From a virus (taxonomy: Duplodnaviria > Caudoviricetes), in IMG/VR virus record IMGVR_UViG_3300001528_000580, positions 288,001-352,000 of that record: a DNA stretch of 64,000 nucleotides; one strand, written 5' to 3'. A program made the translations under genes and the position numbers. The notes beneath the pieces were generated by a model. That model was not told the DNA's origin. It ran no database searches and was given only the letters and a program-made list of their open reading frames with translations. Below, one piece after another: positions 2,619-47,861 of the stretch (positions are counted from its first letter, which is position 1; every line of letters begins with the position of its first letter).

Positions 2619-3722
2619 TTATTTTTCTTTTAAATAAAAGCATATATTATTAAGATCTATTAAAAATCTTGCAATACTACCATCTGAATCATAATATGGT
2701 TTTTCTAAAATTGGTATTATTAATTTAAATTTCTCTAATTCTGCATCATTAGTTCCATATCTTACTTTTTTTAAAATTCTGCTAGATGCTAAACTCAAAA
2801 AAACTCTTCTGAAACTTTCTGATGAAAAATTATCCATTTCTGCAATCATATTTAAACATTCATTATATAAATCTTTATATGAAATGTTTTTATATTCTGG
2901 TAAAAATGGTCTATATATACATTTATCAAATATCATTCTAACAATATCAAATTCTTTACACTGATCGTTTACACTTGGCATATCAAGTATATCATTTAAT
3001 ACACCAATGCCACCATTAACTACTTGTTCTATTGTTTTTAGAATTTTTCTATAGGAAAATCCACGTATAGAACTAATTAATGTTATTTTATCTTCTTTTG
3101 ATAACTTATCTCCCCAACCTTCCTGTCTAAAAACGTCTATTAATAATTCTTTTCTTGCTTCTTTATCAGGAGCTTTTAATAAAAATTCCGAACTTCTATC
3201 GTGAATAGTTGGAATAATTTTTTCCGGTTCTGTTGTGCAAATAAAGAAATATGTATGCGGTGGTGGATTTTCTAATGATTTCAACAATAGATTTTGAGCA
3301 CCATCAGACAACTTATGTGCTTCATCTAGTATAAATATATTATTTCTTCCCATCATTGGAAAATCTAAGAATTGTTCTGACAATTTAAATGCTTCTTCTT
3401 TTGTTGTAAATTTACTACAATTTACCTCATTAATAAAAAAACAATTATCCTTTAAACCATTTAAACAACTTTCGCATTCTAAACAAGGTTCTCCGCTATC
3501 TCCATTTTCACAATTCAATGACAATGCCAATACTCTAGCAATAGTTGTTTTACCTGAACCCATATTACCAGCAAATAAATAACAATGTTGTCTTTCTTCT
3601 TCTGGTTTACTTAACATTACAGATAAACTTTTTACAACATTCTGATTACCACAGATTTCACTTAATCTTCTAGGACGATATCTTTCGCAAATTTCTTGCA
3701 TACCTCTTCTTACTACTGGCAT
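2619..3722 (-). CDS. dnaX: DNA polymerase III gamma/tau clamp-loader subunit
   Basis: YRPRRLSEI, Walker A GNMGSGKTT, Zn cysteines, ILDEAH, LLKSLENPP. Confidence 0.92.
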   Translation of the reverse strand: MPVVRRGMQEICERYRPRRLSEICGNQNVVKSLSVMLSKPEEERQHCYLFAGNMGSGKTTIARVLALSLNCENGDSGEPCLECESCLNGLKDNCFFINEVNCSKFTTKEEAFKLSEQFLDFPMMGRNNIFILDEAHKLSDGAQNLLLKSLENPPPHTYFFICTTEPEKIIPTIHDRSSEFLLKAPDKEARKELLIDVFRQEGWGDKLSKEDKITLISSIRGFSYRKILKTIEQVVNGGIGVLNDILDMPSVNDQCKEFDIVRMIFDKCIYRPFLPEYKNISYKDLYNECLNMIAEMDNFSSESFRRVFLSLASSRILKKVRYGTNDAELEKFKLIIPILEKPYYDSDGSIARFLIDLNNICFYLKEK

Positions 3723-5967: not shown

Positions 5968-7197
5968 ATGCAAAAAGATATTATAGATAAATTTTTAAAT
6001 AGTAATTTATCAGAATACAAATTGGAAGATAATGAAAAAGAATATTTTTCTAATGTAACATCAAAAGAACAAATGAATACTTTAAAAGAATTTGGTGTTT
6101 TAATAAAAAAAGTAGGAAAAGATATCACATTAGAAAATAAGAAAAATAAAATAAACAAAATCAATTATAATAAAAAAACAGGATATATACGACCACCATT
6201 CTTTAATAATATCGTTTTAGATTTAAAACATGCTATTGATTATAAAAAATATAAATCCAAAAACATTTTATTTCATGGACATAAAGGGACAGGAAAGACT
6301 ACATGTGTTTATGAATTATTACAAACCGGAATGTTTGATAAAATATATCAGCAAAATGGTAGTAATGAATTAACATTAAGAGATTTCATTGGTTCAAAAA
6401 CTATTGTTATTGACGAAGATACAAAACAAAATAAAATAATATTTGACAAGGGATTATTATATAAAGCATTCATACATGGAACAGAATTAGATGAACATGG
6501 AAACCAAATATTATATAATGGAGAACCAAAAGTAATAGGTAAACCAGCGATATATTTTCTTGATGAATTTGAACTAGTATTACCAGAAGTATTAACATCT
6601 GTTTTTAACAGAGCGTTAGAAATACCAATACAAGCAGGATTAGGGAGAACATTAGAAATATTCGAGGAAGGTAAAACAATAAAATCACATCCTGGATTTA
6701 CAATTATTTTTGCTAGCAATTTATTAGGAAAAGGGATTGAAACAAGCGGTCAGATAGGATATACTTCACAGAATAATCAACATGATGATAGTACATTAGA
6801 TAGAATAAATATTTCTTATGAGTTTGGATTTAATTTAGATGCAGAAAATAAAATAATAAACAATTATATTAAAGATAAAAAAATTGCTTCTACATTAGTT
6901 AGGTTTATTGAAAAGATGAGATATTCTTGGGAAACTTCTACTGTAAATACATTAATATCTACAAGAAATATTACTAACTTGTGTGAATTATATGAGATAT
7001 ATTATAACGAAAATATTGACAATCCAATAGGTTTAGCATTTATTAACACAATTTACAATAAATTAAATAATAGTGAAAAAGATGCATGGATGATTGCTTT
7101 TGATTTATGTTTTGGTACAAAATTAAAATCTCATTTTATCAATAATATTACTAATAAAATGAGATTTGTCAATAAAAAGAATGAAATAAATATTTAA
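5968..7197 (+). CDS. CobS/MoxR-like AAA+ ATPase
   Basis: Walker A GHKGTGKT, Walker B YFLDEF, HPGFTIIFASN, DSTLDR. Confidence 0.85.
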   Translation: MQKDIIDKFLNSNLSEYKLEDNEKEYFSNVTSKEQMNTLKEFGVLIKKVGKDITLENKKNKINKINYNKKTGYIRPPFFNNIVLDLKHAIDYKKYKSKNILFHGHKGTGKTTCVYELLQTGMFDKIYQQNGSNELTLRDFIGSKTIVIDEDTKQNKIIFDKGLLYKAFIHGTELDEHGNQILYNGEPKVIGKPAIYFLDEFELVLPEVLTSVFNRALEIPIQAGLGRTLEIFEEGKTIKSHPGFTIIFASNLLGKGIETSGQIGYTSQNNQHDDSTLDRINISYEFGFNLDAENKIINNYIKDKKIASTLVRFIEKMRYSWETSTVNTLISTRNITNLCELYEIYYNENIDNPIGLAFINTIYNKLNNSEKDAWMIAFDLCFGTKLKSHFINNITNKMRFVNKKNEINI

Positions 7198-7668
7198 TTA
7201 TTTTGGACTTACTTTACTAATAAATGTTTTTCCATTTTTCTTATTAATAATTTTTCCATCATTCCATATTCCATTGTTCCATGTTCCATCTTTCCATGTT
7301 CCATTATGCCATATTCCATTATGCCATTTACCATCATACCAAAATCCGTTGTGCCAAATTCCGTTATACCAAATTGGAATATTTTTTTCTTCAATATATG
7401 CGCCAAATCTTCCGTTATACCATTCTCCATCTTCCCAAATTCCATCAAAAAAAGTACCGTTATACCATGTACCTGATTCCCATGTTCCGCTTTGCCATGT
7501 TCCATTAAAAAATAATCCGCTATTAAATATTCCACTTGTCCATTTGATAAAACCAGTTTCATTATTTATTGATAAATTTGCATTAGTAACTTTTATTTCA
7601 TATAGCAAATTATCTTTTGCTGTATATAATATTGAACCACTATAATCTACGAATTCTTTTATATCCAT
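7198..7668 (-). CDS. Trp/Gly pentapeptide-repeat (W-x-x-G-x) protein
   Basis: Many tandem WxNGx repeats. Confidence 0.8.
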   Translation of the reverse strand: MDIKEFVDYSGSILYTAKDNLLYEIKVTNANLSINNETGFIKWTSGIFNSGLFFNGTWQSGTWESGTWYNGTFFDGIWEDGEWYNGRFGAYIEEKNIPIWYNGIWHNGFWYDGKWHNGIWHNGTWKDGTWNNGIWNDGKIINKKNGKTFISKVSPK

Positions 7669-8140: not shown

Positions 8141-9088
8141 TTAACTAAAAATATTATTTTCAATACAAAATATTTTTAAATTATTAAATTCACTTTGTTT
8201 AATACTGTTAAGAAACATCATTTGTATTTCATCTTTTGATAATATATCTTCAAGAGTTATATCTTTTTTAATAAATTCTGATACACAATATACTAATTCA
8301 AGTATTGCAATAAAAGAATTATAATTTAAAGTTCCTTTAAATATTCTAAATTCTATTGTATTTTCATTACATAAATTCACAGCGCAATGCCTATTTACAT
8401 TCAACGGACTTCCATATAAATAATATGGTTTGCATAAGAATGATGAATATTTTGAAGTTCTACGTGCAAATTTTGTAAATAACTCGTAATTTTTATTTAC
8501 AAAACAATCCAATTTTGCAATTTCAATGCTATTAAAATAATTTTTATTTATATGAACGTGAATTCCACAATCATCTATATCATAACTTTTAAATCCAAAT
8601 TTTATAGCACCATCTAGTATTTTTTTCCAACCACTTTTATCTGATTTATGATATTCTAGTGTTGCTGGATATGTTACTATTTCACAACCATACTTGGGTA
8701 TACTTCTGTCTTTTTTAATATAAAAGAAATCATTTTCAAAATTTGCAGCAAATAAATTTACTTTATTTACATCTTTATTACCGCCTATCTCTAGTTCTAT
8801 TCCTAAATACAATTTTTTTTCATCATCTAAATCATAAAAAATAGGATAAGGTTTAAAATAATAATTATGAATATGTATTTTATCATCGTCATCTTCATGT
8901 TTCATTCCTTTGGCACAATATATACAAATTCTTAAATTTACATTATATTCATCTCCTAAATAAAACCCACCACAAGAACTACATCTAAACCCATGAGATG
9001 AAGAAAAACATTTATGACAAACATTCATTCTATTAGTAAGTTCAATAGGATGTTTATCTTTATCCTTTCCACATAAGAAACAATTCAT
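8141..9088 (-). CDS. putative amidoligase (COOH-NH2 ligase) with N-terminal Zn fingers
   Basis: GIELE, CEIVT, CGIHVH, TIEFR; CxxC pairs. Confidence 0.8.
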   Translation of the reverse strand: MNCFLCGKDKDKHPIELTNRMNVCHKCFSSSHGFRCSSCGGFYLGDEYNVNLRICIYCAKGMKHEDDDDKIHIHNYYFKPYPIFYDLDDEKKLYLGIELEIGGNKDVNKVNLFAANFENDFFYIKKDRSIPKYGCEIVTYPATLEYHKSDKSGWKKILDGAIKFGFKSYDIDDCGIHVHINKNYFNSIEIAKLDCFVNKNYELFTKFARRTSKYSSFLCKPYYLYGSPLNVNRHCAVNLCNENTIEFRIFKGTLNYNSFIAILELVYCVSEFIKKDITLEDILSKDEIQMMFLNSIKQSEFNNLKIFCIENNIFS

Positions 9089-38960: not shown

Positions 38961-39668
38961 ATGTTTTCACAAAAAATAAAAACTTTCTTAAATAACCACA
39001 ATCCAGAATATAAGTGGAAATTATTTATAATATTTTTATCATTTATGGTAGTTATAAATAGTTTATTTTTATATATAATTCCAGGAACCGATAAAGTAGT
39101 AATAGATCTAATACACTACATTGATTATTTTATTTGTTTTAATTTTTTTATTGATTTTATATGGAGATTATTCACAAGCAAAAACAAATTAAAATTCTTT
39201 TTTACTATTGGATGGATTGATTTATTAGCAAGTATTCCGTATTTGTATTTTTTAAGAATGTGTAAATGTTTTTATGTTTTTTCAATAATAAGAGAATTAA
39301 GATCTTTACAAAGAATATTATCATTTTTATTTAAAAGCAGAATTTCAACAACATTATTATTTTCATTGTTAATGTTTATCACTAGTATATTGGTTTCATC
39401 TATATTGGTATTACATTTTGAACATAATGCTCCAAATGCAAATATACATACAATTACTGGTGCAATGTGGTGGTCTATAAATCTGGCAAGCACTTGTGGA
39501 AATACAGAATTATTTCCTGTTACTGTTTATGGAAAAATGGTTGGAGGTTGTTTAATGGTAATAGGCTATGGATTATTTTCTATGAATGCAGGTGTATTAT
39601 CTTCATGGTTTATGAATAATCTAAATGAATTACATAAAGAAGAAAATAAAGAAGATAATAATACATAA
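38961..39668 (+). CDS. 6-TM Kv-like ion channel with non-canonical filter (STCGNTE)
   Basis: WIDLLASIP (S3), residual S4 arginines, AMWWS pore helix, PVT.YGK (S6 entry). Confidence 0.85.
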   Translation: MFSQKIKTFLNNHNPEYKWKLFIIFLSFMVVINSLFLYIIPGTDKVVIDLIHYIDYFICFNFFIDFIWRLFTSKNKLKFFFTIGWIDLLASIPYLYFLRMCKCFYVFSIIRELRSLQRILSFLFKSRISTTLLFSLLMFITSILVSSILVLHFEHNAPNANIHTITGAMWWSINLASTCGNTELFPVTVYGKMVGGCLMVIGYGLFSMNAGVLSSWFMNNLNELHKEENKEDNNT

Positions 39669-39744
39669 TGGTGGCTATGGTTGGGATCGAACCAACGACA
39701 TCTTCCTTATGAGGGAAGCGCAACTTCCTCTGTGCTACACAGCC
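39669..39744 (-). tRNA. tRNA-Met/Ile2 (CAT)
   Basis: Cloverleaf, anticodon arm CTTCC-CTCATAA-GGAAG, encoded CCA. Confidence 0.9.
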
Positions 39745-39749
39745 TTTTT

Positions 39750-39823
39750 TGGAGCACCATACCAGAATCGAACTGGTGCTTTAACATTGGCAATGTCATT
39801 TGCTACCGCTACAACAATGGTGC
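39750..39823 (-). tRNA. tRNA-Gly (GCC)
   Basis: TGACA-TTGCCAA-TGTTA, U73, CCA. Confidence 0.9.
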
Positions 39824-39835
39824 AATTATCTCGGA

Positions 39836-39912
39836 TGGAGCCATCGACAGGACTCGAACCTGCACAAAGCGGTTTTGCAGACCGCCCCCTTATTCCATTC
39901 AGGCACGATGGC
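39836..39912 (-). tRNA. tRNA-Cys (GCA)
   Basis: GCGGT-CTGCAAA-ACCGC, U73, CCA. Confidence 0.92.
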
Positions 39913-39929
39913 ATATAAATAATTTATAT

Positions 39930-40005
39930 TGGTACTCACGATTGGATTTGAACCAATGACCTTTTCCGTGTTAAAGAAACCATCTAACCGCTGATATACG
40001 TGAGC
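39930..40005 (-). tRNA. tRNA-Val (AAC), A34 anticodon
   Basis: TTTCT-TTAACAC-GGAAA, A73, CCA. Confidence 0.8.
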
Positions 40006-40013
40006 ATATTATA

Positions 40014-40172
40014 TTACCATTTTATTAAATTTTTTTCAATATTATTTTCTATAATTTCTATTTCTTTTTTATATTTTTCCTCGTATTTCTTATCAATAGT
40101 TTTACCATATTCCTTCAAAGAAATTCCATGTTCATCTTCAAATCTTTTCAATATTTCTTTATTTAAACTCAT
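40014..40172 (-). CDS. 52-aa charged hypothetical protein inside tRNA array
   Basis: MSLNKKILKRFEDEHGISLKEY...; AAGGAG RBS. Confidence 0.55.
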   Translation of the reverse strand: MSLNKEILKRFEDEHGISLKEYGKTIDKKYEEKYKKEIEIIENNIEKNLIKW

Positions 40173-40200: not shown

Positions 40201-40276
40201 TGGTTGGCATGGAAAGAGTCGAACTTTCGTTTAGTGTGTATCAGACACTCGTCTTAAACCGTTGGACGACACGCCA
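40201..40276 (-). tRNA. tRNA with GAT (Ile) anticodon, atypical U1-A72 body
   Basis: AGTGT-CTGATAC-ACACT; acceptor TGGCGTG/CATGCCA; CCA. Confidence 0.8.
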
Positions 40277-40286
40277 TCATAATTTA

Positions 40287-40362
40287 TGGTGCTTGTGGTA
40301 GGATTTGAACCTACGACCTTTTGTTTATCAGACAAACTATCTAACCACTGATATACACAAGC
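40287..40362 (-). tRNA. tRNA-Ile (GAT)
   Basis: TTTGT-CTGATAA-ACAAA, CCA. Confidence 0.9.
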
Positions 40363-40442: not shown

Positions 40443-40517
40443 TGGTGCGCTCTGAGAATTTTGAAATCTCGACTCCCACCTTAAAAGGGTAGTGCTCTGC
40501 CTCTGAGCTAAGAGCGC
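40443..40517 (-). tRNA. tRNA-Lys (TTT)
   Basis: CTACC-CTTTTAA-GGTGG, CCA. Confidence 0.9.
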
Positions 40518-41455: not shown

Positions 41456-41550
41456 TTTATATTTCCTTTACATAAATAATTCCTATTTATATAATAGAAA
41501 ATATAAAAAAATAAGTCAAGTATCCTATCCAATTGATCTATGAATATATT

Positions 41551-41626
41551 TGGCATCTCCAACGGGGAACGATCCCGTATTTGTAACTTGAAAGGCTACT
41601 GTCCTAACCAATTAGACGATGGAGAC
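41551..41626 (-). tRNA. tRNA-Glu (TTC)
   Basis: GTAGC-CTTTCAA-GTTAC, CCA. Confidence 0.9.
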
Positions 41627-41663: not shown

Positions 41664-41739
41664 TGGCAGGGCGCACAGGACTCGAACCTGCATCTTACGG
41701 TTTTGGAGACCGCTGACTTACCAATTAGACCAACGCCCT
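41664..41739 (-). tRNA. tRNA-Trp (CCA)
   Basis: GCGGT-CTCCAAA-ACCGT, G73, CCA. Confidence 0.92.
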
Positions 41740-41795: not shown

Positions 41796-41871
41796 TGGTG
41801 GCGGAGGTCGGTAACGATCCGACTACACATGGATTTTCAGTCCATTGCTCTACCATTTGAGCTACTCCACC
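41796..41871 (-). tRNA. tRNA-Phe (GAA)
   Basis: ATGGA-CTGAAAA-TCCAT, CCA. Confidence 0.92.
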
Positions 41872-41873
41872 AT

Positions 41874-41910
41874 AAAACAAAAGGAGCGGATTTTTTATTA
41901 TCCGCTCCCT
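41874..41910 (-). terminator. attenuator terminator immediately upstream of first tRNA
   Basis: GGAGCGGAT-AATAAAAA-ATCCGCTCC followed by TTTTGTTTT, ending 2 nt before tRNA-Phe. Confidence 0.85.
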
Positions 41911-41940
41911 ACACTTTTATAACTAAATTTATAATATCAG

Positions 41941-42039
41941 TTATGAATATAAATGACGTGCATGAGCAGACAAACGGCGTTTAAACCATTCACCACAAAT
42001 CTCAAATTTTTCACAAATCATTTTACGCATAACTAACAT
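41941..42039 (-). CDS. 32-aa leader peptide of tRNA array (MLVMRKMICEKFEICGEWFKRRLSAHARHLYS)
   Basis: GAGG RBS 7 nt before ATG, promoter at 42073-42100, terminator/antiterminator downstream. Confidence 0.75.
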   Translation of the reverse strand: MLVMRKMICEKFEICGEWFKRRLSAHARHLYS

Positions 42040-42055
42040 TTTAAAACCTCTTATT

Positions 42056-42246
42056 TTTCTTTCAATAACTATAATATAACACTATTTTTTTATAATTCAA
42101 GTCTTTTTTCAAATAAAATTGAGAAAATTTTAATGTAGCCTCAAATTTTCTCTAACGATATTACTACCGAACATTTTGAAGGAATGCCACATCCTTCGAG
42201 GTAATGTTAAGACCCCACAATTTCTTTCAATAACTATAATATAACA
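42056..42246 (-). repeat. 26-bp exact direct repeat (42056-42081 and 42221-42246) covering the -10/start of two tandem promoters
   Basis: tttctttcaataactataatataaca twice. Confidence 0.85.
42117..42225 (-). ncRNA. candidate small structured RNA with its own promoter and 3' hairpin
   Basis: Promoter 42238-42265; GAAGGA/TCCTTC stem, TAACATTAC/GTAATATCGTTA pairing, GAGAAAATTT/AAATTTTCTC hairpin; no RBS-led ORF seen. Confidence 0.4.
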
Positions 42247-42295: not shown

Positions 42296-43030
42296 TTAAA
42301 AAAGTTCTTGTTGAATAGATAAATTATCCAAAATATCTTTAGCAAGGCTAAAAAAATCTTTATTTATTTCACAACCAATAAAATTCCTATTATTATTTAA
42401 TGATGCAACACCAGTACTACCACTACCCATGAATGGATCAAAAATAGTATCGTTTTCCTTTGTATGCAATTTAATAAAATCACTTAATAATGCAACAGGT
42501 TTTTGTGTAGGATGAATTCTCTCTTTTTTAGATGGAGAAGAATATCTTTTTGTTTTTAATTTTAAACTATAATCTGCTTCATTATTAAATGTAGAACCAC
42601 TTCCATGAACATAAACAATAAATTCTAGATCTGAAACATATTTACCAAAACAAAATGGAATAGGATTCAATTTACTCCACACCAATAATGTTGTAGGAAT
42701 ATTTAAATTCTCAAAAAAACTCATAGTTTTTGATACTTGATTATTTGAACAAAATATCAAAAAATTTGGAATATCACATAGTTTTAACATATTGGAAAAA
42801 CATTTTTCATAATCAAAACCATCACATATAAAATCAATATGTTTATCTTTAACTAACTTCCTTGTTCCAAAATCATTATTTTTTGTTCCACCATGAATGT
42901 CCATTTCATAAGGTGGATCAGTTATAATACAATCTACTTTTACGCCTCGATAAATCATATCATCCATTATTTTAAAACAATCATCATTATATATTGTATA
43001 ATCTGTCATAATTACTTTATTTATCTCCAT
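42296..43030 (-). CDS. beta-class DNA amino-methyltransferase
   Basis: TDPPY, HPTQKP, DPFMGSGSTG; ends QQELF. Confidence 0.92.
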   Translation of the reverse strand: MEINKVIMTDYTIYNDDCFKIMDDMIYRGVKVDCIITDPPYEMDIHGGTKNNDFGTRKLVKDKHIDFICDGFDYEKCFSNMLKLCDIPNFLIFCSNNQVSKTMSFFENLNIPTTLLVWSKLNPIPFCFGKYVSDLEFIVYVHGSGSTFNNEADYSLKLKTKRYSSPSKKERIHPTQKPVALLSDFIKLHTKENDTIFDPFMGSGSTGVASLNNNRNFIGCEINKDFFSLAKDILDNLSIQQELF

Positions 43031-43341
43031 TTTCTAGAATGTTGTTCAAAACAATTCTTAGTTGATAAAACTCCTTTTAAATCTACTTTTTGAAATACAG
43101 TTTTTCCACAATCGTATTTATATTCAATAGTATAATCATCAATAATTATTGTTTCTATTTTTCCATTTTGACAATGACAACAATTTATCTCTATAAAGCT
43201 ATCAAACTTTTTGCTTTTCCATAATGTTATAAAAAATAATATTTTAACATAAAAAAACTTTATTTTTTCTTTAAAATTCAATTTTTTATAAGAACGACTT
43301 GCATTACTAATATCACATTTATTATTAATGATTACATTCAT
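43021..43341 (-). CDS. hypothetical protein
   Basis: AGGAG RBS; CxxC. Confidence 0.55.
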   Translation of the reverse strand: MNVIINNKCDISNASRSYKKLNFKEKIKFFYVKILFFITLWKSKKFDSFIEINCCHCQNGKIETIIIDDYTIEYKYDCGKTVFQKVDLKGVLSTKNCFEQHSRKWR

Positions 43342-43355
43342 ATATTCTCCTTATG

Positions 43356-43739
43356 TTATGATTCGGAAATGAATAACAAATCAATATTGTTATATTTTAA
43401 TTTCATATTTTTAATATCATTATATAATTCTTTCAATTTATTATAATCAAAATTTATTAAATTGACTTTATATTCATTATATATTTTACCATATAGTTGA
43501 TTCATCTTTGAATATTCAAAAAATTCACAATCAACATCACTATATTTATTTTGATTTTCATATATTATCATCAATACCACACCATATAAAAATTTGGTAA
43601 TATTATATTTATCTGAATCATTTAATTCGTGTTCTTCAACATACATATATGTTGTTTCATTTTCATCATATTCTGGTTGAGCTTTATAATCATCCCAAAT
43701 ATTAACTGTTATTTCATTATAATCATCAATTTTTTTCAT
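43356..43739 (-). CDS. hypothetical acidic protein
   Basis: AGGAG RBS. Confidence 0.6.
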   Translation of the reverse strand: MKKIDDYNEITVNIWDDYKAQPEYDENETTYMYVEEHELNDSDKYNITKFLYGVVLMIIYENQNKYSDVDCEFFEYSKMNQLYGKIYNEYKVNLINFDYNKLKELYNDIKNMKLKYNNIDLLFISES

Positions 43740-43752
43740 TATTAAACTCCTT

Positions 43753-44520
43753 TTAAAATAATTCTCCTTGAACGATATGATTATTTAATCTATTTGCAAT
43801 GATGTCACAATACTTTTCTTCTTTTTCTATTAAGACACATCTTCTATTAGTATTCATACATGCAATTCCAGTTGTACCGCTACCAGCACAAAAATCTAAT
43901 ATTAAATCTCCTTCGTTTGTATAAGTCTTGATTAAATATTCTAATAAAGCAACTGGTTTTTGGGTAGGATGCAATCCTATTTCTGTATTAAATTTTTGCC
44001 ATGATGAAGGGACTCTCAATTCAGTTAGTTTATTATCTTTTCTTTCATCAAATTTTCTATAATTTTCGGTTTCTGTAATAAAATCACACTTATATTTAGA
44101 CCTTAATTTACCATTTTCTGATCTTTCTTGCATTTGTTTATTATATGTCCATTTCCCATTACTAAAAAATAATATTTGCTCGTGTTCTTTCATTGGTTCT
44201 CTAACTGTATTAGCAAAATTACTACCTCTATTTTTTATCCATATCCATTCATGTTTAAACATTTTAGGATTACTCATAACTAATGCAGAAGAAAATGGTT
44301 GAGAACCATGTAATAAAATAGAAGCATTATCTTTCATAATTGGCAATAAAGCACTCCACATTTCATTAAATGGTATTATAGCATCCCATTTACAACTAGT
44401 AGTTCCATACGGTGGATCTGTTATACAAGCATCAAAAGTAACATTAAGTTTAGGCATAATTTCTAAACAATCACCATAATATAATTTAACTAATTTATTT
44501 TCAAAATATTTATTATTCAT
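43753..44520 (-). CDS. beta-class DNA amino-methyltransferase
   Basis: TDPPYG, HPTQKP, DFCAGSGTTG; ends QGELF. Confidence 0.92.
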   Translation of the reverse strand: MNNKYFENKLVKLYYGDCLEIMPKLNVTFDACITDPPYGTTSCKWDAIIPFNEMWSALLPIMKDNASILLHGSQPFSSALVMSNPKMFKHEWIWIKNRGSNFANTVREPMKEHEQILFFSNGKWTYNKQMQERSENGKLRSKYKCDFITETENYRKFDERKDNKLTELRVPSSWQKFNTEIGLHPTQKPVALLEYLIKTYTNEGDLILDFCAGSGTTGIACMNTNRRCVLIEKEEKYCDIIANRLNNHIVQGELF

Positions 44521-44521
44521 T

Positions 44522-45274
44522 TCAAATTATATAGCTTCCTAGTCTATTTTTTATGATTTCACAATATTTTTCTTCCTTTTCTATCAAAACACATTTTCTT
44601 GATGTATTAATACAAGCCATACCAGTACTACCGCTACCTGCAAACGAATCCAAAACCAGATCATTATTATTAGTTGATACATTTATTAAAAACTCTATTA
44701 ATTTAACACTTTTTTCATTGGGATGAATAGCATTAGATGCACGTTTTTCTGTTGCATATGAAACTTCTGTTTTAATAAAATTAGGATATTCATAAGTATA
44801 TTCATTTGGTTTTTTATTTCTTTTGTCATTAAACCATTCTTTAGATGTTTTAAAAAAATCAACATTATTTAACGGCTTTCCTCTTCCTTTTGAAAATACT
44901 AAAATTGGTTGAAATTGGAATCCAAAATTATTTTTTGCCCTTTTTGCTCCATTATTAAACGATCTTGTTGCAATAATGTTTTTATAAGTAAATCCATTTT
45001 CTATACCTGTAAATATCCAATTATGTAATGTCTTTACACCAACAAATAAAAATAAAAAACAATCATCTTTTAAAATATTATACCAACACATAAACCATTT
45101 AGGCATTTCTTCTAGTATATAATCATTTGTATCATTATAAAAATCATTTTTAAATCCTACTCCATATGGAGGATCAGTTATAATACAATCAAATTTTTTA
45201 TCAAAATTATACATTATACTTATACAATCATCGTTATATAATTCTATATTTTTATTACTAAAAACACAATTCAA
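44522..45274 (-). CDS. beta-class DNA amino-methyltransferase
   Basis: TDPPYG, HPNEK, DSFAGSGSTG; TTG start after AGGAG. Confidence 0.92.
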   Translation of the reverse strand: MNCVFSNKNIELYNDDCISIMYNFDKKFDCIITDPPYGVGFKNDFYNDTNDYILEEMPKWFMCWYNILKDDCFLFLFVGVKTLHNWIFTGIENGFTYKNIIATRSFNNGAKRAKNNFGFQFQPILVFSKGRGKPLNNVDFFKTSKEWFNDKRNKKPNEYTYEYPNFIKTEVSYATEKRASNAIHPNEKSVKLIEFLINVSTNNNDLVLDSFAGSGSTGMACINTSRKCVLIEKEEKYCEIIKNRLGSYII

Positions 45275-45339
45275 TTTATAAACTCCTTGTAATTATTTAT
45301 TTTAATAATATAGCATAAAAATACATAAAATCAACATAT

Positions 45340-46368
45340 TTATATTTTTTTTCTAAAGATAAAGATTGGTTCATATTTATATTTATCTTTATGACTTAAA
45401 CTTGACAAACTATATTTCATTATTTTCATTAAATCAAAATTGTTTTTTTGAGCAACATTTAAAAAATCATTTTCTAAGTTATTATAAGAACGTACATTAG
45501 CTATATTAATAGCTAAAATACCTTTAGAATTTAATCCATAATAACAATTTTTTAATGTTTTACTCAAAAATTGTTCTATCCATTCCTCCTTTGAAGAATA
45601 TTTTAAATAAGATTGTGTTAATTCATTGGAATATCTTTCTGTATCAAAATAAGGTGGACTTGTAAAACAAAAATCCAAAGAATTTTTTTCAGGTATAAAA
45701 TCTTCTGAGCCAACTTTATATAATTCTACTTTAGTATGATATAAAGGAAATAAATAATCATCTTGATTATATCTACAATCTTCTGATATTTTTTGTAAAC
45801 CATTGAATGTTTGAGTACATGGTTCTGTTCCAATATATTTTTTTACTTCTGATTTTATTGCACCAAGTAATCTACCACCATATCCACAAGACATATCCCA
45901 AACAACTTTATCTTTAGCAAATAATTTATATATCAATCCGGCGGCAGTTGGTCTAAAATTAGAAACACTCTGTACACCAGAAAATATTTTTAACATTTTT
46001 CTAATACCATTATCAGATATATTATCTCCAAACTTTATTCTTTTATCTATAACCTGTCTAAAGGTATTATCATCAAGAAAAGCCTCTAGTGGTGTTTTAA
46101 AGCCGTTACAGTTGACATTATAAGCATGTGGCATATAAGACCAACACAAAGCTAAACCATGCATGGCTTGCCCTATTTCATCGTTATTCAACAATGTATA
46201 ATCATCAAATGACATGAATTTATCAAATTCATTTTTTCTCCATTGTTCATCTGTTGGGAAATATGGAAATCCATGTTTTCTATAATATTTAAAAACATTT
46301 TCTTTATAATTTTCTAATTCTTCGTCAGAAAATTTATTCCATTGATTTTTATTTAAAAAAATATTCAT
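45340..46368 (-). CDS. DNA amino-methyltransferase (motif I before motif IV, SPPY)
   Basis: NFRP, DMSCGYGGRLLG, FTSPPYF. Confidence 0.88.
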   Translation of the reverse strand: MNIFLNKNQWNKFSDEELENYKENVFKYYRKHGFPYFPTDEQWRKNEFDKFMSFDDYTLLNNDEIGQAMHGLALCWSYMPHAYNVNCNGFKTPLEAFLDDNTFRQVIDKRIKFGDNISDNGIRKMLKIFSGVQSVSNFRPTAAGLIYKLFAKDKVVWDMSCGYGGRLLGAIKSEVKKYIGTEPCTQTFNGLQKISEDCRYNQDDYLFPLYHTKVELYKVGSEDFIPEKNSLDFCFTSPPYFDTERYSNELTQSYLKYSSKEEWIEQFLSKTLKNCYYGLNSKGILAINIANVRSYNNLENDFLNVAQKNNFDLMKIMKYSLSSLSHKDKYKYEPIFIFRKKI

Positions 46369-46372
46369 AAAA

Positions 46373-47095
46373 TTATTTATTTTTATTTAATCTATCAGTA
46401 ATAATATTGCAATATTTTTCTTCTTTTTCGATAAGAATACAATTTCTATTAGTATTCATACAAGCAACACCTGTCGTTCCACTACCTGCGCAACTGTCTA
46501 AAATTAAATCTCCTTCATTAGAACCTAACATAATTATTCTTTCTAATAATCTTACTGGTTTTTGAGTAGAATGATCAACTTTTTCTTTACTATTATGGGG
46601 TAATGCAGGTATATCTGTCCAAACATCAGAAAGTGAAACTCCATTCTTTAAAATTCCACTTTTATACTCTTTTCTATTAGAATTAATTTGAATTTTTATA
46701 TTATTAAATGTTGAATTATTTCCTTTAGAATAAAAACAAATAGGTTCATATCCACTACTAAGTGCCATCCCTCTTGTATTGTTGAATGCTCTTTTTCTAG
46801 CCCAAATAATAATTCTTTTTTCAATAAAATATTTGTCAAGAATACAAGCAATCTTTCTATTATATTGTCTACCTGTAAACAAAAAAATATTTTTATTTGG
46901 CTTTAAGATTCTTTCATATTCAATAACATTACTTTCAATCCATTTTAAATATTCAACTTCATTATCCCAAAAATTGTCCCATTTATCTTTCACAACATTA
47001 CAATATGGTAAATCAACAATTATACAATCAATACATTCATTATCTAATGATTTAAGAACATTGAGACAGTCATCATTATAAATTTCAAAATTCAT
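46373..47095 (-). CDS. beta-class DNA amino-methyltransferase
   Basis: VDLPY, HSTQKP, DSCAGSGTTG. Confidence 0.9.
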   Translation of the reverse strand: MNFEIYNDDCLNVLKSLDNECIDCIIVDLPYCNVVKDKWDNFWDNEVEYLKWIESNVIEYERILKPNKNIFLFTGRQYNRKIACILDKYFIEKRIIIWARKRAFNNTRGMALSSGYEPICFYSKGNNSTFNNIKIQINSNRKEYKSGILKNGVSLSDVWTDIPALPHNSKEKVDHSTQKPVRLLERIIMLGSNEGDLILDSCAGSGTTGVACMNTNRNCILIEKEEKYCNIITDRLNKNK

Positions 47096-47153
47096 TATTA
47101 TATTACTCCATTAATTTTAACTTATAATATAACATATATTTTGAAAAAATCAA

Positions 47154-47861
47154 CTAAATATTAATAAATCTGTTTTTTATTATTTCACAATAATTTTCAT
47201 CTTGTTCAATTAATATGCATTTTCTTCCTAACTTCATACAAGCAATCCCTGTTGTGCCACTTCCTGCAAATAAATCTAAAACAGTATCACCTTCATTTGT
47301 AAAAATATTAATAATTCTTTCTAATAATTGAACAGGTTTTTGGGTAGGGTGTTGAACTCTTTCAGGAGACCACGGAACAATCGGAGATATATCTTGCCAA
47401 ACATTTGTTAATTTTCTGAACTCACAACCATTTTTTCTACCAATAGTTCCACCTGTTTTTTTCTTTATATTAGATAGTATTGGATTAAAAATATAATTAT
47501 CACCTTTGGAAAACCATAAAATATCTTCTCTTGTAGAAACAAAATTCTTTTTTGCTCCTCTTCCTTTTATTCTATCCCATATAATCCAATTATTAAATTT
47601 ATATCCATTATTCTTAAAACATGAAATAGCATAGTTAACATTACTCCAACCTTGAAAAACTAATAAATTACCATTTTCTTTTAATGATTTATCAAAAATA
47701 GGATAGTATTGATTAATATCAAAATTACTATCCCATTTATTATTTTCAAAATTAATTCCATATGGTGGATCAGTTATAATACAATCTACTTCACTACCTA
47801 CATAATCAATACAATTTCCACAATACAATTTTACATTGTCATTTTCATAATATAATTTCAT
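47154..47861 (-). CDS. beta-class DNA amino-methyltransferase
   Basis: TDPPYG, HPTQKP, DLFAGSGTTG. Confidence 0.92.
   Translation of the reverse strand: MKLYYENDNVKLYCGNCIDYVGSEVDCIITDPPYGINFENNKWDSNFDINQYYPIFDKSLKENGNLLVFQGWSNVNYAISCFKNNGYKFNNWIIWDRIKGRGAKKNFVSTREDILWFSKGDNYIFNPILSNIKKKTGGTIGRKNGCEFRKLTNVWQDISPIVPWSPERVQHPTQKPVQLLERIINIFTNEGDTVLDLFAGSGTTGIACMKLGRKCILIEQDENYCEIIKNRFINI

Follow-up and report, generated by a model that had tools for sequence, protein, structure and literature searches.

Attenuation of amino-acid operons is known from leaders such as trpL, hisL, leuL and pheL, with thrL (Thr/Ile) and the ilvGMEDA leader (Ile/Leu/Val) as multivalent examples. In E. coli, the pheST leader (pheM) attenuates phenylalanyl-tRNA synthetase in response to the supply of charged tRNA. 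The outcome in the amino-acid operon attenuators is set by a race between ribosome and polymerase (PMC1183508). We analyzed a 64,000-nucleotide (nt) stretch of phage DNA (positions 288,001-352,000 of virus record IMGVR_UViG_3300001528_000580, hereafter the window) in which a short leader open reading frame (ORF) precedes an array of tRNA genes. The sequence of this leader and its modelled folding indicate that the tRNA operon is very probably controlled by a multivalent ribosome-mediated transcription attenuator.

The core sequence-testable features of the trp/his/ilv-type attenuators are present in the phage leader: a short ORF with regulatory codons, a terminator and a mutually exclusive antiterminator. 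The amino-acid operon attenuators regulate enzymes or aminoacyl-tRNA synthetases and have one to three inputs, whereas the phage leader would regulate tRNA genes through nine or ten, with each codon type occurring one to three times and not in runs. It further differs in being located in a phage and in that its products themselves decode the sensor, which would form a direct feedback loop. Attenuation, known for enzyme genes with no more than three inputs, would in this way be extended to tRNA genes and to nine or ten inputs. The pheST leader is alike in attenuating a part of the translation machinery by charged tRNA, but it senses one amino acid and targets a synthetase. T-box riboswitches also switch between terminator and antiterminator in response to tRNA charging, but they bind tRNA directly, read a single specifier codon and have no translated ORF.

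Two other systems are related by purpose or behavior. The trn operon of Anabaena PCC 7120, the nearest functional parallel, is described in two reports as a long tRNA array with a homing endonuclease beside it that is normally silent and is induced when translation is impaired (PMC8421152, PMC10272220); it differs in being controlled at the promoter by direct repeats and the TrcR repressor, and PMC8421152 mentions neither attenuation nor a leader. The tRNAs of T5-like phages counter the tRNA-cleaving defences retron-Eco7, PrrC and PARIS, according to passages of three reports (PMC11555353, PMC11464382, PMC10264068). Their purpose, the replacement of depleted host tRNAs, is likely the same as that of the array described here, but the rescue in the passages of PMC11555353 relies on a strong promoter and no depletion-sensing switch is described in them. 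The purpose of phage tRNAs has been argued for 50 years, with codon compensation, replacement of degraded tRNAs and escape from anticodon nucleases among the proposals in the passages of PMC10264068. A switch tied to the decoding speed of exactly those tRNAs would imply an on-demand reserve, and the question would become testable with a 230-base-pair (bp) reporter. According to the original prediction for this locus, no phage tRNA operon is known to be regulated in this way, and our literature search, in which subscription journals were thinly covered, likewise found no report of one.

Codon match between leader and tRNA array

The elements of the leader, all on the minus strand, are as follows.

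42071-42100, minus strand: sigma-70-type promoter, TTGAAT with extended -10 TG.TATATT; the motif recurs upstream of other genes and tRNAs
42047-42050, minus strand: Shine-Dalgarno sequence GAGG, 7 nt 5' of the ATG
41941-42039, minus strand: leader ORF, 32 codons, TAA stop; identical or near-identical peptide on strain contigs
42028-42040, minus strand: 5' strand of the protector helix, pairing with 41945-41933 in the untranslated RNA (minimum-energy fold)
41980-42039, minus strand: sensor codons 1-20, for Met, Val, Lys, Ile, Cys, Glu, Phe, Gly and Trp, plus Leu2 and Arg5 (CGT)
41958-41973, minus strand: antiterminator 5' strand, codons 23-28, a near-copy of the terminator 3' arm
41919-41944, minus strand: inner hairpin over the stop codon (41944-41937 with 41926-41919)
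41898-41914, minus strand: switch strand, comprising the antiterminator 3' strand, the terminator 5' arm and the start of its loop
41874-41910, minus strand: intrinsic terminator, 11-bp stem (41910-41881) with 6 G-C pairs, U tract; kept in all strain loci

The promoter, GAGG, 32-codon ORF, terminator and tRNA-Phe all lie where they had originally been placed. A short ORF with a ribosome-binding site stands between the promoter and the first regulated gene at 15 strain loci, which are not all independent; sequences from further sequencing runs are assembled contigs. Two runs labelled as RNA contained just 5-8% of the sequence words, and the contigs of one of them (X19), probably DNA, do not cover the leader and so carry no information on its expression. 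The leader promoter carries a TTGA...TG.TATATTATA motif that is common upstream of many genes and tRNAs of the phage genome, although promoter-like matches alone are not enriched (111 versus 106 in shuffled sequence). The terminator ends 2 nt 5' of tRNA-Phe (start 41871), a gap too short for a promoter, so at least tRNA-Phe, tRNA-Trp and tRNA-Glu require transcriptional read-through.

The tRNAs of the array serve nine amino acids (Met, Val, Lys, Ile, Cys, Glu, Phe, Gly and Trp), which make up 46% of the phage proteome; the codons that these tRNAs read make up 40%. Among leader codons 2-20, 17 of 19 fall within this set, as against 0 of 12 among codons 21-32. The match over codons 2-20 has a binomial P of 1.1e-4 by amino acid and 1.3e-5 by codon, and when the cut point is left free P is 3.7e-4 in simulation, 5.5e-4 against real protein windows and 2.2e-4 against nucleotide shuffles. 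No 19-residue window out of 103,437 in the phage's own proteins reached 17/19 with all nine residues present. The match over the whole ORF is unremarkable (17/31, P=0.22), and the signal lies in the split between 17/19 and 0/12. With P at 2-5e-4, and with cross-tests in contig L041 and phage phiCbK described below, the regulatory codons are cognate to the function encoded downstream. The match of 18/20 first reported is real, but it included the start Met, and 17/19 is the fair count. Similarly, GTT does pair with the AAC anticodon of the array's tRNA-Val as claimed, but this is weak evidence alone because GTT is the commonest Val codon of the phage (56%).

One of the two mismatches in the sensor region is accounted for by other strains. 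The Arg5 codon CGT, which represents only 13% of phage Arg codons, is read by a tRNA-Arg(ACG) that is intact within the array in L049 (592-668) and L144. This tRNA is absent in the window, altered in L143 (near 1983), and carries a 3-nt duplication in the anticodon loop in L048 (1305-1384) and L138 (6662-6741). These sequences point to ongoing decay of the tRNA, with the CGT codon retained in the leader.

The predicted RNA switch and its conservation

ViennaRNA folding of the 3' half of the leader, which represents the state before the terminator 3' arm is made, reproduced the predicted 10+5-bp antiterminator (41973-41958 with 41914-41898) together with the inner hairpin at -22.1 kcal/mol. The duplex between the ORF and the terminator arm has an energy of -20.3 kcal/mol, which was reached in 1/2000 shuffles and 2/3000 genome windows. 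When 22 terminator-like hairpins of the genome were compared, the upstream complement of the leader terminator was the strongest (-20.9 versus -13.9 for the next and a median of -6.8). By computation and comparison, the antiterminator and terminator are mutually exclusive, and the antiterminator 5' strand lies in the path of the ribosome. The inner hairpin may also serve as a polymerase pause site; its core is kept in run X4 and its sequence is rearranged in L048.

We modelled the position of the ribosome by folding only the RNA ahead of it with a +15 footprint. The antiterminator probability is ~1 with the A site at codons 2-19, 0.85 at codon 20, below 0.5 from codon 21 and ~0 from codon 28, with the switch shifting by one codon with the assumed footprint. 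The modelled switch at codon 20/21 coincides with the end of the matching codons and explains the 17/19 versus 0/12 split independently of the chosen cut. In this model, for the window and for L041 alike, the placement of the sensor lets a stalled ribosome free the antiterminator strand and a passing ribosome block it. In the untranslated RNA, the predicted protector helix sequesters the start codon; together with another helix it also ties up the antiterminator strand, and the terminator forms; the fold has a z score of -5.4 with the terminator and -3.3 without it, and it is predicted also in L138 despite the changed sequence.

Taken together, these features suggest the following mechanism. 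RNA polymerase, probably that of the host given the sigma-70-type promoter, would start near 42064, and a ribosome would load on the leader. When the cognate tRNAs are plentiful and charged, the ribosome would pass codon 20 and cover or unwind codons 23-28; with these blocked, the terminator would fold and transcription would end 2 nt before tRNA-Phe. If a tRNA for any one of the nine amino acids, or for Arg-CGN where a strain keeps that tRNA, is scarce, uncharged or cut, the ribosome would stall within codons 2-20, leaving codons 23-28 free to pair with the emerging terminator 5' arm so that polymerase reads into the array. The new tRNAs would relieve the stall in a feedback loop and, since they decode the same leader codons, the loop would turn itself down. 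Where no ribosome loads, the protector helix would form and the terminator would win. We infer both leader translation and the kinetics of the switch. The phage probably makes the array tRNAs only when ribosomes stall for lack of them.

Cleavage by an anticodon nuclease, starvation, and exhaustion by AT-rich codon demand would all give the same stall, and sequence cannot separate them. We regard it as evenly balanced whether several unrelated groups of large phages monitor the host tRNA pool and release matched replacements when host defences destroy tRNAs, as an inducible and self-limiting counter-defence. If they do, the leader sequence lists which tRNAs the phage expects to lose. The leader is also a candidate for a compact biosensor of tRNA depletion.

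Comparison among strains bears on both halves of the leader. The most diverged strain type (L048, L049, L138 and L143) differs from the window at 12/43 positions of the promoter region, 16/33 of the spacer after the stop codon and 20/76 of tRNA-Phe; codons 1-21 differ at 0/63 nt, synonymous sites included, and the interval from the start site to the ATG at 0/28. The promoter is kept in L048 and L138 with a changed -35 region. In contigs of the further runs, variation in the ORF is confined to codons 22-24, and the amino-acid changes among strains (R22L, R22H and L23S) fall only in the pairing region. All 10 pairs of the main antiterminator helix are kept in L048 and L138, where a U-A pair has become C-G by a compensatory change: the 3' base lies in the terminator loop, at a position not needed by the terminator, and the 5' base changes Leu23 to Ser, so that L23S tracks the RNA pair. 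A second change, U-G to C-G, improves pairing in the same strains.

Distant leaders and alternative explanations

The same layout recurs in a 277-kilobase contig, L041, which is distantly related to the window by a patatin gene 61% identical, by the same gene order from patatin to GroES-GroEL-HSP20, and which reads TAG as Gln. At the same genomic site, L041 carries an array of Gly, Tyr, Asp, Ala, Ser (three copies), Pro and Asn tRNAs and a tmRNA; the tRNA-Tyr was identified by eye from its GTA loop and was called by neither ARAGORN nor Rfam. Ahead of the array are a promoter, GAGG, an unrelated 25-codon ORF (7175-7252) and an inner hairpin, along with a terminator that differs in sequence from that of the window; the leader ORF ends with an echo of this terminator's 3' arm. 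Matched to its own array, the L041 leader reaches 18/20 (P 8.5e-7), against 4/20 for the array of the window; the window leader scores 1/19 on the L041 set, and the modelled L041 switch at codon 21/22 again coincides with the end of the matching codons. The L041 array, which would be attenuated likewise, ends in the tmRNA gene (8376-8772); the same stall might therefore induce ribosome rescue too.

Two leaders were also found in phiCbK, a cultured Caulobacter phage (JX100813). Its gp083, annotated as 45 amino acids, is followed by an annotated terminator and a block of Pro/Thr/Lys/Leu/Ala/Ser tRNAs, and 38/44 codons match that block (P 1.5e-9). The second is an unannotated 32-codon ORF followed by a terminator and Tyr/Phe/Val/Ile/Gln tRNAs; it has a strong antiterminator within the ORF (0/500 shuffles) and a weaker codon match, with P 0.07 for the whole ORF and 0.002 for codons 2-22 when tentative Arg and Gly tRNAs are included. 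The expectation that leader codon content co-varies with array content is borne out in both L041 and phiCbK, and the similar layout in a cultured phage would offer a laboratory system.

Other searches did not extend this set. A blastn search of the array against cultured phages returned only short tRNA and endonuclease matches, and pattern scans yielded either no match or chance matches that no tRNAs follow; these scans were built on the terminator, the leader start, the upstream element, the anticodon arm of tRNA-Val, tRNA-Trp and the two antiterminator/terminator layouts. Searches with the patatin and a 169-residue ORF found no related locus in viral contigs. Endonuclease-anchored loci L010-L017 have tRNA arrays in which a simple detector found no leader, and patatin relatives at ~50-62% (L045, L050-L057, L149-L153) have no array within reach.

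Several points weigh against the attenuator, which is supported at the level of its architecture by the agreement of the sensor boundary with the modelled ribosome footprint, the covariation with the array and the antiterminator changes. At equilibrium the full transcript of this strain always favors the terminator. Read-through therefore has to be a kinetic outcome, in line with the models for trp and his (PMC1183508), and coupling of transcription and translation in the host is assumed. If the RNA is allowed to pair across the ribosome, the antiterminator can form again once a ribosome has reached codons 32-33 and left it behind, which makes termination dependent on timing or on the protector helix. 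The compensatory changes proposed as a check yielded one compensatory and one improving pair, but the former is a single event that does not rise above the shuffle control in four related sequences (87/500), and that pair is a C-A mismatch in mosaic strains L139, L142 and L148. Recombination could partly account for the invariance of codons 1-21, and for phiCbK gp083 the antiterminator partner is not significant and falls past the end of the ORF. Other clusters of the genome also include Lys, Ile, Val, Gly and Met tRNAs, and no such leader was found at those clusters, which sit directly behind promoters; the phage therefore seems to divide its tRNAs between a promoter-driven group and a conditional one. 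Weak promoter-like sites also occur within the array (41519-41491, near 40039, and L138 7493-7520).

An attenuator of the same architecture might instead sense general ribosome speed or coupling, or act as a fixed early-infection timer, with the codon match a relic and any slowing leading to read-through. The ribosome model is indifferent to codon identity, giving the antiterminator for a ribosome anywhere in codons 2-20, and the leader is unchanged upon decay or loss of tRNA-Arg(ACG) and upon loss of tRNA-Phe in L143. Such a general sensor would require no codon match; three unrelated leaders, however, fit their own arrays and not one another's, and the synonymous sites of codons 1-21 are unchanged as well, which makes this explanation improbable. 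The leader could also be an ordinary small gene, whose peptide contains two Cys and two His and loosely recalls a fragment of a Cys/His zinc finger, or a small RNA that carries a terminator of its own, consistent with the long hairpin of the untranslated RNA (z -3.3) and the non-significant whole-ORF match; the tRNAs would then be expressed by leaky read-through or through a phage antitermination protein. The peptide, however, has no Pfam match at E up to 1, does not conform to the C2H2 zinc-finger class, and has no relatives outside its own strain cluster among 1.84 billion representatives, apart from one match to a protein of 1017 amino acids without an aligned stretch. Its amino-acid changes are confined to the RNA pairing region, and the syntenic L041 ORF, without sequence likeness, has the same layout and matches its own array. 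An ordinary terminator would have no reason for the strongest upstream complement in the genome, and no Rfam family was found at threshold, so we consider this account somewhat less probable still.

A T-box-like riboswitch, binding uncharged tRNA directly and without translation, would also place a terminator and antiterminator upstream of translation-related genes. Rfam gives no T-box match for the leader at E values as high as 10, and the leader contains neither the UGGNACC bulge nor a stem I with specifier. A T-box also recognizes a single codon instead of nine and works without an open frame or a ribosome-binding site; this makes such a riboswitch scarcely credible. Weak Rfam matches to SpF39, Termite-leu and the L20 leader depend on the terminator hairpin and score well under threshold. 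The long hairpin also raised the possibility of a 6S-like RNA or another free-standing small RNA, which was dropped for lack of a family match.

The tRNA array and its genomic setting

Downstream of the leader are ten tRNAs, an endonuclease gene and one small ORF, in the order Phe, Trp, Glu, endonuclease, Lys, Ile, Ile, Val(AAC), Cys, Gly(GCC), Met.

41796-41871, minus strand: tRNA-Phe(GAA)
41664-41739, minus strand: tRNA-Trp(CCA)
41551-41626, minus strand: tRNA-Glu(TTC)
41491-41519, minus strand: promoter-like site of the inserted endonuclease gene, gone along with the gene in L138 and L143
40529-41455, minus strand: DUF559 / Vsr-like endonuclease (Pfam PF04480, E 3e-9)
40443-40517, minus strand: tRNA-Lys(TTT)
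40287-40362 and 40201-40276, minus strand: two tRNA-Ile(GAT)
39930-40005, minus strand: tRNA-Val(AAC), kept in strain loci
39836-39912, minus strand: tRNA-Cys(GCA)
39750-39823, minus strand: tRNA-Gly(GCC)
39669-39744, minus strand: tRNA-Met(CAT), elongator type

The Phe, Trp, Glu and Cys tRNAs are found at a single site in the phage genome, in this array only. The endonuclease, probably of the mobile homing type, is missing in L138 and L143 and shorter or split in L139, L142 and L148, which marks its insertion as optional; the distal tRNAs may be uncoupled by it, though in this strain alone. It had been cautioned that the endonuclease promoter could drive the distal tRNAs; this may apply here, but strains without the gene and its promoter keep the leader before 11-12 tRNAs. 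In L138, where the leader precedes 12 tRNA calls, the array contains neither a strong internal promoter nor a strong terminator.

The suggestion that the CAT tRNA might be Ile2 is made less likely, as its acceptor begins GGCU, with U4-A69 and without initiator features, consistent with an elongator Met type by textbook identity elements. The tRNA-Val(AAC) has A at the wobble position, which is rare among bacterial tRNAs, and this is also seen in a tRNA-Ile(AAT) of phiCbK (L055 22233-22307). In L049 (501-588) and L138 (6571-6658), tRNA-Glu(TTC) is 88 nt long, with a long variable arm in place of the ordinary 76 nt of the window, and its body recalls selenocysteine tRNA. Between tRNA-Lys and tRNA-Ile lies a 70-nt element with a 7-bp closing stem (40437-40365, minus strand) that is absent from L138, was not called as a tRNA and has no Rfam match; a hammerhead did not fit.

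Upstream of the leader, a second promoter (42265-42236, minus strand) is followed by an RNA of ~110 nt with multiple hairpins (42265-42110). The two promoters have a 26-nt core in common, which is the phage promoter motif, and transcriptional read-through from the second would enter the leader. One stem reads AACATT/AATGTT in the window and AGTATT/AATACT in L033, L036, L048 and L138; by visual inspection, these are two compensatory changes. The loop of the final hairpin contains GAGG(C/T), a possible pairing partner for ACCTC. This RNA has no Rfam match. Directly upstream (42296-47861, minus strand) are at least 5-6 DNA methyltransferase-like genes in a row, whose count and order differ among strains. 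At the other end of the array, a potassium-channel-like gene (38961-39668, plus strand; Ion_trans, E 2.5e-12) ends 1 nt from tRNA-Met on the opposite strand; it is present in L034 and not in L033 or L138.

The source phage is a jumbo phage of ~441 kilobases, represented by a complete record of 440,868 bp with 25% G+C and direct terminal repeats, and 33 tRNA genes are spread across several clusters of its genome. Near-identical sequence is present in pig gut, cattle gut, wastewater and landfill metagenomes. The anticodon arm of tRNA-Lys (window 40443-40517) matches 79 genomes, ~70 of them labelled Omnitrophota or Planctomycetota, which hints weakly at a host from the PVC group. At G000:C1:256421-256495, outside the window, lies a tRNA whose anticodon is CTA (amber). 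TAG still ends ~22 of 424 long ORFs of the phage genome, and relatives such as L041 and L045 read it as Gln; the phage and its relatives may possibly represent a lineage on either side of a recoding event. A repeated scaffold with an AACGTA motif surrounds tRNA-like cargo in G000:C1 near 90050, 204070, 204200 and 204330 and in L041 at 3325-3450.
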